A program made the position numbers and the translations under genes. Of a DNA stretch of 64,000 bases, positions 23,593-27,739 are shown piece by piece. How positions within the stretch are numbered: position 1 is the stretch's first letter; every line of letters starts with the position of its first letter. The notes under the pieces were generated by a model, which saw only the letters and a list, made by a program, of their open reading frames with translations, had not been told where the DNA came from and searched no databases. The DNA is from Gammaproteobacteria bacterium. GTDB taxonomy: Bacteria; Pseudomonadota; Gammaproteobacteria; JAJFKG01. The stretch lies in contig OZ220716.1 in assembly GCA_965116795.1 (NCBI GenBank), positions 1,450,503 to 1,514,502 on the forward strand, written 5' to 3'.

Positions 23593-24009
23593 ATGTCGCA
23601 TTGGGCGTGTCAGTATATTGGTTTGCCTTGGCAATCAGGTGGCAGGTGTTTATCAGGTTTTGACTGCTGGGGCTTAGTAAAGCATATACAGCAACATCAC
23701 TTCAATCGCACATTGCCTGACATTCCAGTCGATGCGGTTAACTTAACACAGGTGGCTAAAGCGTTTAAGCAACATCCTGAGAAGCAACGTTGGCAATTAA
23801 CTGAAAATCCTACTGAAGGCGATGCCGTATTATTACGTCAATCACGTTATCCGATTCACGTTGGGATATGGATTGCTATTAATCCAACTGAACAAGGCGT
23901 ACTGCATTGTGTGCAAAAGAGTGGCGTTGTATTTCAAACGATTAACAGTTTGCAGGTATCAGGTTGGCAAATTGAAGGCTGTTATCAATTTCAAGGTGAT
24001 TCACTGTAA
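23593..24009 (+). CDS. NlpC/P60 tail-associated peptidase
   Basis: YIGLPW..GGR...GFDCWGL, HVGI, VLH. Confidence 0.88.
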   Translation: MSHWACQYIGLPWQSGGRCLSGFDCWGLVKHIQQHHFNRTLPDIPVDAVNLTQVAKAFKQHPEKQRWQLTENPTEGDAVLLRQSRYPIHVGIWIAINPTEQGVLHCVQKSGVVFQTINSLQVSGWQIEGCYQFQGDSL

Positions 24010-24280
24010 TGGCACAAATTATCGTTCTGCATAACCCTTTTTTGTGTGAGCGTGGGCGAGATGTGATTACTGTTGATCATCCTATTACCATTGCAACGTG
24101 GTTAACGCAGACTAATGTTGTCACATTTGAATTGCCAACAATTTGTTTGATCAATGGCCATGCCGTGTTACGTCAAGATTGGCAAACGACAATGATGCAA
24201 GCCAATGATGTTGTGACTTTCATCACGTTACCACAAGGGGGCGGTGGTGGCGGCAGTAAAATCTTACGCTCTGTATTAAT
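24009..24280 (+). pseudogene. 5' part of tail-tip/host-specificity protein (gpI/gpJ-like), cut by IS110
   Basis: ...LPQGGGGGSKILRSVL joins in frame to MIAVMVAAP at 25748 when 24281-25749 is removed. Confidence 0.85.
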
Positions 24281-24420
24281 CAACTATGGTTTTCAAATGT
24301 TTAAAAATTTTTCTTTTAGCGAAGAAATATACAAATATGGCTAGGTACAGCACATGGCTATAAGCAAAGATAAAGAAAAAAGTAGATACTAAGACGCCTT
24401 ACAAAGCACAAATGAATATA

Positions 24421-24510
24421 GGTTAAGCGTGGTTATTGTCAAGGGTGGCTTCACTAACAGTGGTGCATTCAGCATTGCACTGCAACCCTTGACAATAACC
24501 ACGCTTAACC
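24421..24510. repeat. Perfect 26-bp inverted repeat in the IS110 3' non-coding end
   Basis: GGTTAAGCGTGGTTATTGTCAAGGGT (24421-24446) / ACCCTTGACAATAACCACGCTTAACC (24485-24510). Confidence 0.9.
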
Positions 24511-24572
24511 CAAAATGTCATCATGCCTTGTAAGGCTCGTTCTGTGCTACATCTTGCGATTAAAGTATTATT

Positions 24573-25532
24573 TTAAGTAATTGTAGCGTTTGCATTTACT
24601 TGGCCTGTTTCAATAAAATGATCGCGCATTCTTGCATTCGCTATCACAATAATTTTTCGCATTAATGCCACTAACGCTACCATCTTTCTTTTACCAGACT
24701 CAACTAAACGTCTATAAAAATCGCCTAATGCTCCTTTACTTTTAGCTGCAGCCATTGCTGCAATAAACAATATCCGTTTCACTTCTTCTCGACCACCTCG
24801 AGTAAATCGATAACCTTGCTTAGTGCCGCTATCGTTAGGATGAGGGGCTACACCGGCTAAGGAGGCGATTTGTTTTCGATTTGCCTGACCCAATTCCGGC
24901 ATAAAAGCCAACAATGTTGAAGCAACTACTTCACCAACACCGGGTATCGTTTGCAAAATCTTTTTTGTTTCAAGCAATGAGTTGTCTTGCTCATAGATCA
25001 GATTGATTTTCTTTTCGATTTGCTTAATTTCCTCGGTAAAATACGCTATCATCCTGTCGATGCTCTCTGTAAGAATTTCTTGTTCTGGTGATTGCAAACG
25101 ATTCTTTTCTTGCACTAACATTTTGGTTAACTCATTACGGCGCAGAAGTAGTTTTTGCAGTATTTTATTTGCTGGTTCTTTGTATACCTCTAAATCAGCA
25201 TGACGCTCATAACCGTACTTAGCTAAACCTAATGCATCAATCGTGTCTGTTTTACCCAGTTGGCCAAACGAACGAATAAAGTGTTTTACTTTGCGTGTAT
25301 TAGCTCGATGTACAGCATAGCCTTTTTCTTGCAATGCGCGAATCAACGCTAATTCGTGTCCACCTGTCGTTTCTAACACTATCAGTGCTGAGGATAGCTT
25401 ACTTGCCCATTCCTCAAGATAACGTGCGATACCGACAGCGTTATTCTCATAAACGCTGACTTCTTTTTCCCCATGGATGGCACTGTAAAACTCATACTTA
25501 CCAATATCAATTCCTATAAATTTCTGATACAT
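24573..25532 (-). CDS. IS110-family recombinase
   Basis: IGIDIG, LETTG, KTDTIDA (DEDD); IPGVG, DSG, GGR. Confidence 0.95.
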   Translation of the reverse strand: MYQKFIGIDIGKYEFYSAIHGEKEVSVYENNAVGIARYLEEWASKLSSALIVLETTGGHELALIRALQEKGYAVHRANTRKVKHFIRSFGQLGKTDTIDALGLAKYGYERHADLEVYKEPANKILQKLLLRRNELTKMLVQEKNRLQSPEQEILTESIDRMIAYFTEEIKQIEKKINLIYEQDNSLLETKKILQTIPGVGEVVASTLLAFMPELGQANRKQIASLAGVAPHPNDSGTKQGYRFTRGGREEVKRILFIAAMAAAKSKGALGDFYRRLVESGKRKMVALVALMRKIIVIANARMRDHFIETGQVNANATIT

Positions 25533-25554
25533 TACATATTCCCTCGTGCGTTTA

Positions 25555-25715
25555 ATGTTTGTTTAGGATTGTAAACGGGCGTTTAGCCCTTTCAACTATT
25601 CAAACGTATCGAGGTCGATCTAGGGTACCCAGATTAACACGGTTGTTAAGACCTATGATTGCACGGTCGCCCACGATCGCGCAGCTAGGTTAATTCAGCT
25701 TAGCGGCTCACCTCT
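25555..25715 (-). ncRNA. Predicted IS110 bridge RNA (boundaries approximate)
   Basis: Two internal loops whose segments match the reconstructed target and donor junctions (see findings). Confidence 0.8.
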
Positions 25716-25747
25716 TAAAGTGAATATTAACAAAATTTCAACTTACA

Positions 25748-27739
25748 ATGATTGCGGTGATGGTGGCCGCCCCTGCGATTGGGGGCGCCGTTGCGGCAGG
25801 GCTTGGCATTACCAGTAGCATTGGTGTTGGCTTAGTCACTGCCGGTGTGGCTTTAGCCGGTACCGCGTTAGTGAATGTATTAGTACCACCGCCGATGGCT
25901 TCTATCCATGGATTTGATAATACACCGGCACCCAGTCCGACGTATTCACTGCAAGCCAGAGGCAATCAAGCCAGACTCAGTCAACCCATACCTGTCATTT
26001 ACGGCAGGCACATTGTCTATCCTGATTTGGCCAGCACACCGTATTCCCATTATGCCAACAATGAACAATATCTCTATCAGCTACATTGCATTGGTCAGGG
26101 GGAATATGAGATTGAGTCCATTCGTATTGAAGATACAACTATTAGCTCCTTTCAAGAAATCACTTATGAAGTAGTGCCACCTGGTAGCAATGTGACGTTA
26201 TTTTCAGCAAATGTCATCACCGCACCCGAAATCGCGGGCCAAGAGTTGTTATCAACCAATGATGGAGGTGGTTACGTTGGTGGCTTTGTGGTGAATCCCG
26301 CGGATACGGTTGCAACAGAGTTGAGTATCGATATCATCATGCCACGTGGCCTTTACTATGCCAATGACAGTGGCGGCCTAGATGCACGCACCCTAACGTG
26401 GATAATTGAGGCAAGACAAATTAATGATGAAGGTAACCCATTACAGGATTGGCAACGCTTAGGCAGTGAAACGCTTACAGCAGCGACCAATACCCCACAA
26501 CGGTTAACCTGTCATTACACTGTGCTACCCGGGCGTTATGAAGTCAGAGCGCTTAGAACCAACAACAAAGATACGTCAGCACGCAGTGGCAATGAATTAC
26601 GTTGGGCAGGATTGAAAGCCACGCTTAATCAATCTACTGACATGGGTAACGTCACCTTGCTTGCCATTAAAATGCGTGCTACCGATAACTTATCACAACG
26701 TGCATCGCGATTAGTTAACTGCATTGTTACGCGTAAATTACCAACGTGGAATAACCAAACGGGTTGGAGTGCACCAAAAGCCACTCGCTCGATTGCCTGG
26801 AGCTTAGCCGATATTGCCAAAAATGAATACGGCGGTAACTTGCCAGACAGTCGCATTGATTTACAAGCGCTAGCTAACTTAGATGCGATATGGCAACAAC
26901 GTAACGATTGTGTTGATGTGGTCTTTGACCAACCGATTACAGTGTGGGAGGCCATGATACGTGTTGCCCGTTGTGGGCGCGCAGTGTGTTTTATGCAAAC
27001 AGGGATTGTCAGATTTGTTAGAGACGAACCCAGAGAAATTCCAGCAGCACTCTTCTCACCACGTAATATTGTTAAACACAGTTTAAAAATCCACTACTTA
27101 CTTGCAAGTGATGATACCGCTGACAGCGTGATTGTCGAATATTTTTGTAATCAAACTTGGCGACCCGATGAAGTCGAAGTCAGTTTGCCTAATAGTACCA
27201 GTGAACAGCCGGCGCGGGTGAGATTATTTGGCTGTACCGATAAAGAGCAAGCCATACGTGAGGGCAAGTATATGGCAGCGACGAATCATTATCGCAGACG
27301 GCTAGTCACCTTTCAAACAGAATTAGAGGGACTAATCCCAACCTATGGCGATTTAATTGCCATTACACACGACATGCCATCTTGGGGTCAAGGCGCTGAA
27401 GTTGTTAGCGTTGAAGGTAACATACTTATGTTATCGGAGCCACTGGCCTGGGATGAGAATAAATTGAATGAGCACGTCATTGGCCTGCGCAAGCAAGATG
27501 GCAGTGTCAGTGGAACATATCAAGTGCTGCCAGGTAATAATGCGAATCAAGTTATTATTCAAGGTGAATTTAATTTTCAACCCTACACCGGTGAATCACA
27601 AGAGCGCACTCATGTCGCGTTTGGTGTCGGTAATGCGTGGAGCACATTGGCTCGCGTTACTGCTGTACGTCCTAGGGGCGATGTCATTGAAATCAGCGCG
27701 GTTACGGAACATCCAGCCGTGCATACGGCTGACGCATAA
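25748..27739 (+). CDS. Host-specificity/central tail-tip protein (TipJ-like), 3' part
   Basis: NQARL.QPIPVIYG, YL.QLHCIG.G, TRSIAW, RRRLVTF.TELEG. Confidence 0.88.
   Translation: MIAVMVAAPAIGGAVAAGLGITSSIGVGLVTAGVALAGTALVNVLVPPPMASIHGFDNTPAPSPTYSLQARGNQARLSQPIPVIYGRHIVYPDLASTPYSHYANNEQYLYQLHCIGQGEYEIESIRIEDTTISSFQEITYEVVPPGSNVTLFSANVITAPEIAGQELLSTNDGGGYVGGFVVNPADTVATELSIDIIMPRGLYYANDSGGLDARTLTWIIEARQINDEGNPLQDWQRLGSETLTAATNTPQRLTCHYTVLPGRYEVRALRTNNKDTSARSGNELRWAGLKATLNQSTDMGNVTLLAIKMRATDNLSQRASRLVNCIVTRKLPTWNNQTGWSAPKATRSIAWSLADIAKNEYGGNLPDSRIDLQALANLDAIWQQRNDCVDVVFDQPITVWEAMIRVARCGRAVCFMQTGIVRFVRDEPREIPAALFSPRNIVKHSLKIHYLLASDDTADSVIVEYFCNQTWRPDEVEVSLPNSTSEQPARVRLFGCTDKEQAIREGKYMAATNHYRRRLVTFQTELEGLIPTYGDLIAITHDMPSWGQGAEVVSVEGNILMLSEPLAWDENKLNEHVIGLRKQDGSVSGTYQVLPGNNANQVIIQGEFNFQPYTGESQERTHVAFGVGNAWSTLARVTAVRPRGDVIEISAVTEHPAVHTADA

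Follow-up and report, generated by a model that had tools for sequence, protein, structure and literature searches.

Does the non-coding end that precedes the recombinase gene of an IS110-family insertion sequence (IS) encode an RNA that picks the insertion site, and, if so, where is that RNA aimed? The question is raised by a locus in a 64,000-nucleotide stretch of DNA (hereafter the window; positions 1,450,503 to 1,514,502 of the forward strand of contig OZ220716.1, assembly GCA_965116795.1) from a bacterium of the class Gammaproteobacteria, for which a reading made from the letters alone (the sequence-only reading) had proposed a bridge RNA with four guides and an AT core, laid out as in IS621. 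We find that the element is an intact IS110-family insertion sequence of 1,469 bp (window 24281-25749, minus strand, a length that counts the left AT core copy), that it is a new orthologue of the known IS621-type kind and not a new mechanism, and that its left end very probably encodes a two-loop RNA predicted to act as an IS621-type bridge RNA.

Boundaries, recombinase and insertion sites

Coordinates of the element are given in IS orientation, which is the minus strand. Its main parts and its junctions are the following.

24281..25749, minus strand: whole IS110-family element, delimited by four identical copies, seven empty homologous sites and contigs in one public run (X7)
25749-25748 (left) and 24280-24279 (right), minus strand: the two core AT copies, from the junction reading
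25750..25757, minus strand: left target half (CCGCAATC), within the prophage tail gene that the element interrupts
24273..24280, minus strand: right core copy AT and right target half TAATAC, from the junction reading and the empty sites
24573..25532, minus strand: recombinase gene, 319 amino acids (aa), from Pfam domains and homology to IS621 and ISCro4
24281..24572, minus strand: right non-coding end, 292 bp, which ends in the left-donor sequence CATAGTTG (24288-24281)

The left junction reads caccgcaatc-AT-TGTAAG (further into the element, caccgcaatc-AT-TGTAAGTTG) and the right junction CATAGTTG-AT-taatac (over a longer reach, AACCATAGTTG-AT-taatacag). The ends are precise and share a core without terminal inverted repeats, and the core AT that the sequence-only reading had named stands at both junctions in 4/4 copies. 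Occupied sites thus have the form ..gcaatc-AT-TGTAAG....CATAGTTG-AT-taa.., while the empty paralogous sites read ..gcaatc-AT-taa.., with the core present once.

The genome (2.45 Mb in one contig, 41% G+C) carries four copies of the element, each 1,469 bp long and 100% identical. All four lie at (C/G)GCAATC-AT-TAA(T/C)AC in one orientation and interrupt four different, diverged prophage tail genes at the same codon block, a finding that bears out the expectation that other genomic insertions would match GCAATC-AT-TAA. Seven homologous tail-gene paralogues are uninterrupted and join both flanks exactly with a single AT, and the boundaries of the element are therefore fixed to the base. Five of the seven empty sites are exact matches to the 14-nt target, and in the genome as a whole six exact copies of it are unoccupied (five in tail-gene paralogues and one elsewhere), where about 0.04 would be expected by chance. 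The copy outside any tail-gene paralogue (GCAATCATTAATAC) lies on the minus strand at genome positions G000:C1:2040597-2040610.

Identical copies in paralogous genes might also have spread by homologous recombination or gene conversion between similar tail genes, with the guide-target matches described below going back to one ancestral insertion. The flanks of the target genes, which are paralogues, are 75-96% identical over 400 bp, which could support such exchange, and the identity of all four copies would fit it as well. However, the flanks begin to differ 4-6 bases outside both boundaries (TAATAC versus TAACAC, caccgc versus cacggc), they are 10-25% different over 400 bp, and at one occupied site they are only ~75% identical. 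Relatives inserted in unrelated contexts obey the same rule relating guides to flanks, and gene conversion would leave the covariation among them unexplained. We consider this explanation very unlikely.

The same element is also found in contigs of other public runs, where it sits in the same tail gene with diverged flanks; one run has paralogous empty sites as well. The contigs of run X7 contain a joint (24277>25747) that skips exactly 1,469 bases; it was rejected as evidence of excision, since it comes from diverged paralogous empty sites that differ at 19 and 6 other letters. Contigs of this run also break inside the element at window positions 24861, 25102, 25701 and 25726, with unrelated sequence beyond, which suggests rearranged or truncated variants of the element in the organism of run X7.

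The recombinase gene (319 codons) has 215 non-coding bases of the element before it and 292 after it. Its product matches PF01548 (RuvC-like DEDD, E 1.7e-17, residues 6-148) and PF02371 (Tnp, E 4e-18, residues 191-273), both above the curated cut-offs, and it is homologous to the recombinases of IS621 (8wt6, E 1.5e-33) and of ISCro4 (9t56, E 8.7e-33, over residues 5-300 including the N-terminal FIGID), with the motifs GID, ETTG, KTDTIDA and DSG aligned to the catalytic motifs of these two proteins. By these alignments the catalytic residues of IS621 (D11, E60, D102, D105 and S241-G242, with roles described in PMC11208158) have counterparts in the predicted residues D9 (FIGID, via the ISCro4 alignment), E54 (ETTG), D96 and D99 (KTDTIDA) and S235-G236 (DSG). 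The protein had been called compact, a description that does not hold, as the IS621 recombinase (326 aa) is about the same size.

Guides and the two-loop RNA

The predicted RNA and its parts, with the left and right target guides (LTG, RTG) in the first loop and the left and right donor guides (LDG, RDG) in the second, are as follows.

25556..25716, minus strand: predicted bridge RNA, ~160 nt; 5' end placed from the -10 box, 3' end set at the last conserved stem
25724..25729, minus strand: predicted -10 box TAATAT, a consensus match only
25616..25679, minus strand: target-binding loop domain, with stems conserved and loops variable among relatives, and with guide matches
25679-25665 paired with 25630-25616, minus strand: outer stem of the target loop, a conserved structure
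25662-25655, minus strand: LTG GCAAUCAU (DNA GCAATCAT), 8/8 identical to left target plus core
25653-25641, minus strand: inner hairpin of the target loop, GGU/ACC, between LTG and RTG
25640-25633, minus strand: RTG GUGUUAAU (DNA GTGTTAAT), which complements core plus right target
25561..25605, minus strand: donor-binding loop domain, near-invariant in 7 aligned relatives
25605-25601 (GUUUG) paired with 25565-25561 (UAAAC), minus strand: donor-loop stem, a conserved structure
25599-25592, minus strand: LDG AUAGUUGA (DNA ATAGTTGA), 8/8 identical to left donor plus first core base
25589-25577, minus strand: inner hairpin of the donor loop, GGGC/GCCC, between LDG and RDG
25574-25568, minus strand: RDG UUACAAU (DNA TTACAAT), 7/7 complementary to AT-TGTAA, followed by C25567

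All four guides were located exactly where the sequence-only reading had placed them, in the order and polarity of IS621, and the two hairpins that it described between the guides of each pair are present. The 5' sides of the loops equal the top strand, and the 3' sides complement it, for the target in loop 1 and for the donor in loop 2. The RTG had been given as 7/8 plus one wobble, and this is right for the window copy, where it forms 7 Watson-Crick pairs and one G-T wobble with AT-TAATAC; the wobble is particular to that copy, since the RTG matches AT-TAACAC at two sister copies 8/8, and at one the pairing extends to 10/10 (CCGTGTTAAT). LTG, RTG and RDG span both core bases. At the handshake position of the target loop, C25632, directly 3' of the RTG, can pair with donor position 7 (G), and this base is a C in 6/6 relatives that have a target loop, in keeping with a handshake guide.

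To assess these matches against chance, the left end was subjected to 5,000 dinucleotide shuffles, and the matches at least as long as those observed were counted. Such matches arose for the LTG in 66/5,000 shuffles, for the LDG in 95/5,000 and for the RDG in 492/5,000, and for the RTG in 83/5,000 (the 8-mer against the target of copy 3) and 4/5,000 (the 10-mer against the target of copy 4), while all four guide matches occurred jointly in 0/5,000. For the RTG of the window's own copy the exact-match measure gives only a 5-mer (4,420/5,000 shuffles), because of the wobble position. The right end was also tried as the seat of the guides, as in the IS1111 type. It is longer than the left end (292 versus 215 bp), and yet it holds only two 7-mers (TTGTAAG) and one 9-mer (CACAGAACG); it was rejected because these matches are near chance and because there are relatives without a long right end.

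Relatives of the element were sought in several collections. No match was found in the two other genomes of the family and of the order (three genomes each, including the window's own). The best relative in genome contigs has a protein 56% identical to the recombinase, and metagenome contigs gave relatives at 55-58% and 48%. In plasmids, the protein search returned 2,299 records with identity of at most 40.5%, and the DNA search one 79-base match. Among phage records, the element in Wolbachia phage WOcauB1 (gp20, AB161975), with a protein 48% identical, is the closest annotated relative. In viral contigs a protein-pattern scan found none, and a scan with the donor-loop motif gave 27 stretches, of which 23 were dropped for having no TTACAAT after the motif and four are real, all of the type found in phage WO (L046, L052, L060 and L061). 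Locus H17 was left out of the left-end comparison, as its sequence begins only 105 bases upstream of the gene.

In the aligned left ends of relatives (48-58% protein identity), the stems and nearly the whole donor loop are kept and the target loop is variable, and the core at the right end is AT in 9/9 related elements whose right end was read. The predicted target guides were compared with the flanks of each relative as follows.

L025: LTG with left flank plus core 8/8, RTG with core plus right flank 6/8
L024: LTG with left flank plus core 7/8, RTG with core plus right flank 6/8
L023: LTG with left flank plus core 6/8, RTG with core plus right flank 6/8
L038 (the WO-phage element): LTG with left flank plus core 7/8, RTG with core plus right flank 7/8
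L046: LTG with left flank plus core 8/8, RTG with core plus right flank 7/8
L052, L060 and L061 (one site): LTG with left flank plus core 8/8, RTG with core plus right flank 5/8

Among the WO types the target loops differ between near-identical left ends, following their flanks. On the donor side, the LDG matches the left donor 7/7 across elements with an A/G covariation: ATAGTTG in the LDG goes with ATAGTTG at the right end in five element types (the window, L022, L025, L009 and the WO types), and ATGGTTG goes with ATGGTTG in L023 and L024. The predicted guides therefore covary with flanks and right ends across relatives, as judged by sequence comparison. As a positive control, we applied the same reading to a true IS621 copy (L040, protein against 8wt6 E 4e-220), and it recovered the guides ATCGGGCCT against the flank ATCAGGC-CT and TTGCGTAG against CT-ACGCCA, together with the published donor ACAGTAT-CT-TG.

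Two relatives, L023 (positions 40-56 and 1206-1221) and L046 (left ~1651, right ~3020), combine a GT left junction with an AT right junction, and in L046 the LTG reads GU and the RTG AU. These junctions look like the products of a GT-core target and an AT-core donor, in which case each junction would keep the core of the DNA that donated its top strand.

The matches and their covariation also bear on a simpler explanation, in which the protein alone picks the target, the left end is a 5' untranslated region with promoters, and the four matches are accidental or remnants of the ends. Folding of the left end as a single sequence is indeed unremarkable, and a promoter-like TTGAAA-N16-TACAAT (10/12 matches to consensus only; window 25595-25568, minus strand), which could drive the recombinase from an integrated copy, overlaps both donor-loop guides, so that conservation there could partly serve transcription. 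Against this, the four matches are jointly absent from all 5,000 shuffles, the target loops of the WO types follow their flanks despite near-identical left ends, LDG and right end change together, and the protein is homologous to enzymes reported to need RNA (PMC11208160). Targeting by the protein alone is extremely improbable on this evidence.

Comparative folding of five left ends with RNAalifold yields a stem with an inner hairpin for both the target loop and the donor loop, together with an outer stem and a 5' hairpin, and compensatory changes occur in 14/40 predicted pairs. Four of the 40 join the two donor guides to each other and were not counted as structure. The structure call rests on this comparative fold because the single-sequence folds differ from it.

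Several observations weigh against a bridge RNA of the IS621 type aimed at this target. Folded singly, the left end fails to give the two loops and shows no clear advantage over shuffles (z-score -0.94 when the 217-nt left end is folded, -2.09 with 158 nt). The LDG spans the first core base alone (AUAGUUG-A-a), and C25567, at the donor-loop handshake position, is unable to pair with the C at target position 7, extending instead the pairing with donor G7. Among relatives the RTGs match at only 5-7/8 positions, the LTG of L023 mismatches the core at its left junction (AA versus GT), and the relatives are few, some of them close kin (L023 and L024, and the WO types with one another), which leaves few independent covariation events. 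Six exact target sites are unoccupied, so activity may be low or recent. Finally, the only Rfam match in the left-end region lies on the opposite strand: it is the Xanthomonas small RNA (sRNA) sX15 (RF02234), matched over the full length of the model at window 25543-25693 (plus strand) with 44.3 bits, against a family cut-off of 55, and E 1.5e-5.

Transcript strand, junction promoter and mechanism

The sX15 match raises the alternative that the functional RNA is made from the plus strand, antisense to the recombinase, and guides or regulates recombination with the strands swapped. The strand is undecidable from the guide matches alone, as an antisense RNA would fit the opposite strands just as well. 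Apart from the full-length match itself, a 120-bit sX15 match in another genome of the class (G018, L032:1501-1662, plus strand) is also antisense and lies 20 nt from a DEDD_Tnp_IS110 open reading frame (ORF; L032:939-1481, minus strand), both sX15 and its complement asX7 are reported as detected in Xanthomonas (with higher read counts for sX15, 80 and 8 versus 4 and 4; PMC3300014), and in the inner hairpin of the target loop one pair that is C-A in the sense reading would become U-G in an antisense RNA. However, the match in the window is below the Rfam cut-off, and a scan of the closer relatives L022-L025 and L038 and of the IS621 copy found no sX15 at E up to 1 and no bridge-like family. 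In 31 curated pairs read across five sequences, G-U cells outnumber A-C cells 11 to 3, which favours the recombinase strand. A promoter scan found no promoter-like site on the plus strand within the left end, the promoter predicted at the circle junction is conserved and points in the sense direction, and the bridge RNA of IS621 is described as a sense transcript of the left end (PMC11208160, PMC11208158). On these grounds the predicted bridge RNA is probably sense to the recombinase, and we regard an antisense RNA as quite unlikely.

The sX15 model aligns end to end with the left-end region and gives two stem-enclosed loops and a closing stem. What Rfam sX15 models appears to be an IS110 left end, the bridge-RNA region, in reverse complement. 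A further sX15 place lies at L021:1879-2037. In the source publication (PMC3300014, Schmidtke et al. 2012) sX15 is described as an orphan sRNA of a Xanthomonas plasmid with complement asX7, and ten homologues are noted in a Stenotrophomonas genome. At the Xanthomonas sX15 locus no IS110 gene adjoins and an IS3 element follows, and a literature search for 'sX15' and 'asX7' found no link to IS110. A link of sX15/asX7 to IS110 left ends would re-annotate an orphan sRNA family.

The junction promoter is predicted to form when the element ends are joined in a circle. The computed circle junction contains TTGATT-N17-TAATAT, in which the -35 hexamer arises only when the right-end TTG (24283-24281) is joined to the core AT and T25747; the integrated left junction has ATCATT at the -35 position. 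The same arrangement, TTGATT-N17/18-TAnnnT, with a -10-like hexamer 17-18 nt downstream of the -35 box, is found by consensus matching in 6/6 elements for which both ends are known, and IS621 is likewise reported to rebuild a sigma-70 promoter at its circle junction (PMC11208158, PMC11208160). From the position of the promoter, the RNA would therefore start near 25716, in agreement with the upper limit that the sequence-only reading had set for the RNA region. In one relative the left end begins with a tandem duplication of TGTAAGTT (L024:148-175), which shifts the predicted -10 box by 8 bases. A second promoter-like site within the element, TTGACA-N16-TATATT (11/12, a consensus match only), lies in the 3' arm of a right-end hairpin (window 24442-24415, minus strand); it faces outward from the element, and after circularization it would be directed into the left end.

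The anatomy of the element, its exact boundaries, the four guide matches with their covariation, and four precise insertions at one motif are observed directly, and by homology with IS621 transcription, RNA ends, protein-RNA binding and catalysis would follow the scheme of that element. The element would excise as a circle, and joining of its ends would create the TTGATT-N17-TAATAT promoter, from which the left end would be transcribed. The transcript would fold into two loops. Loop 1 would pair with both strands of the target GCAATC-AT-TAAYAC (LTG with the bottom strand and RTG with the top), and loop 2 with the element's own joined ends, CATAGTTG-AT-TGTAAG, through LDG and RDG. A tetramer of the 319-aa DEDD/serine recombinase would then carry out strand exchange at the AT core common to target and donor, by way of a phosphoserine intermediate.

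Known bridge recombinases and the tail-gene target

Compared with IS621, every sequence feature of the predicted bridge-RNA layout that could be tested is present in this element except the CT core, a left end longer than the right and a fitting base at the donor-loop handshake position. As described for IS621 (PMC11208160, PMC11208158, 8wt6), the protein combines a RuvC-like DEDD domain, a coiled coil and a Tnp domain with the catalytic serine loop; a guide RNA is predicted in the left end on the recombinase strand, in the order 5' hairpin, target loop and donor loop; target and donor have a dinucleotide core in common, with T in second place; the left donor is 7 bp long; and the right end would supply the -35 box at the circle junction. 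In IS621, too, the LDG covers only the first core base (ACAGUAU-C-a, read on the L040 copy). The differences begin with the protein (~30% identity over the aligned part, read by eye) and the left ends, which are not alignable by sequence, so that pairwise alignment is uninformative. The core is AT here, whereas IS621 and related orthologues are stated to have a CT core; the RDG forms an unbroken run of 8 pairs that takes in donor position 7, whereas that of IS621 is discontiguous; and only the target-loop handshake position fits in the present element. The right end is longer than the left, the reverse of the IS110 group (as opposed to IS1111). ISCro4/IS622 is likewise a two-component system with a homologous recombinase, although a distant orthologue, and is reported to use CT cores, and GT also for human sites (bioRxiv 10.1101/2025.05.14.653916; 9t56).

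The WO-type elements have the same donor (CATAGTTG-AT-TGTAAG), donor loop and stems, an AT right end, and a long hairpin in a long right end. They differ in their target loops and targets (ATCAAA-AT-GGCTAT, AAAAAA-GT/AT-GGAAAA and CAGAAT-AT-GAACCG). The WO-phage element is also inserted in a phage tail module. In the WOcauB1 copy the reading frame looks disturbed near its start, and the annotated coding sequence begins at residue 33 of the alignment.

The element had been put forward as a candidate programmable tool with a different core. The AT core is real, at the junctions of the four copies and at the right end of all relatives examined, and yet IS621 is reported to recombine AT, GT and TT cores as well, less efficiently (PMC11208160, PMC11208158), and the T is described as nearly invariant, with lower conservation at the first core position (PMC11208158). 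The tool argument is therefore weaker than it had been made, because an AT core keeps the near-invariant T and IS621 tolerates AT. A preference of the enzyme for A as the first core base, if it exists, would bring more sites within reach of bridge editing. We found no paper naming a natural AT core or this clade; the figures and supplements of Durrant et al. (PMC11208160) may list such elements, and the accessible part of preprint 10.64898/2026.08.14.744561 held nothing on core diversity. Searches for IS110 together with Wolbachia and bridge RNA returned no literature, and among the matches listed for IS110 target sites in prophage tail genes none concerns this subject, judged by titles and the beginnings of abstracts.

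The target of IS621 is a repetitive extragenic palindromic (REP) element, whereas the target of the present element is a coding motif of a prophage gene, split in the window into two fragments.

24009..24344, plus strand: upstream piece of the split tail gene, carrying an I-like N-terminal domain and ending inside the IS right end
25748..27739, plus strand: downstream fragment of the split tail gene, J-like, 663 aa (Pfam Phage-tail_3 and FNIII-A_GpJ)

The uninterrupted tail gene is a single ORF of 755-760 aa, in which a hydrophobic stretch rich in glycine lies between an I-like N-terminal domain and a J-like body, and the insertion site lies at codon 92-97 (ILRSVL/MIAVM). The upstream fragment, which has weak Lambda_tail_I and ThiS matches below the Pfam cut-offs, runs 27 codons into the IS right end before a stop. 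The ATG of the downstream fragment is formed by the core AT and a G (24279-24281 / 25748-25750 on the plus strand), and in the uninterrupted paralogues it corresponds to a Met codon within the gene. Full paralogues of this lambda-like tail module number at least 11 in the genome, with flanks 74-96% identical, in addition to fragments near 1.347 Mb; they lie in G000:C1 at ~99.7 kb, 361 kb, 1.09-1.54 Mb (nine) and 2.106 Mb, the window's own being at 24009-27739. The element targets a conserved codon block in a prophage tail gene that occurs in many copies; it therefore has numerous non-essential places to land, and the tail gene is split wherever it inserts.

These findings leave the known mechanism unchanged. 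They add a cleanly delimited and apparently active bridge-recombinase orthologue with four readable guides and a native 14-bp target and donor, in a genome that supplies its own internal controls (4 occupied versus 6 exact unoccupied sites), and the value of the element lies in this clean anatomy, in these controls, in its AT-core clade and in its prophage-gene target. The predicted bridge RNA is aimed not at REP-type repeats but at a motif within the coding sequence of a repeated prophage gene, and targeting such a gene is one way to reach many harmless landing sites, with knockout of the tail gene as a side effect. Tentatively, and with more doubt than confidence, we propose a wider reading, in which the element belongs to a natural AT-core lineage of bridge recombinases, using a core that IS621 disfavours; the donor loop would stay fixed while only the target loop is re-aimed, in at least two hosts at phage tail modules (here the codon block of the prophage tail gene, and in Wolbachia the WO phage). 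Such an element would be a prophage-homing, prophage-disabling parasite, and its enzyme could serve as an orthogonal A/T-core bridge-editing enzyme.

Nine of the tail modules lie within ~450 kb at a spacing of roughly 25-95 kb, an unusual prophage-like load for so small a genome. The right end of the element contains a long hairpin at ~24419-24512 (within 24395-24550; -73.2 kcal/mol, z -9.9), flanked by inverted GCCTTACAA/TTGTAAGGC. It is found only in the four IS copies of the genome and so is no genome-wide repeat, and two Rfam matches to microRNA models on it were taken as artefacts of a long hairpin. In the relatives L022-L025 the right end extends only a few to ~30 bases past the stop codon, with no such hairpin. 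A comparable perfect hairpin, likewise starting with GGTTAA, occurs in the long right end of the Wolbachia WO element (L038:1759-1809).

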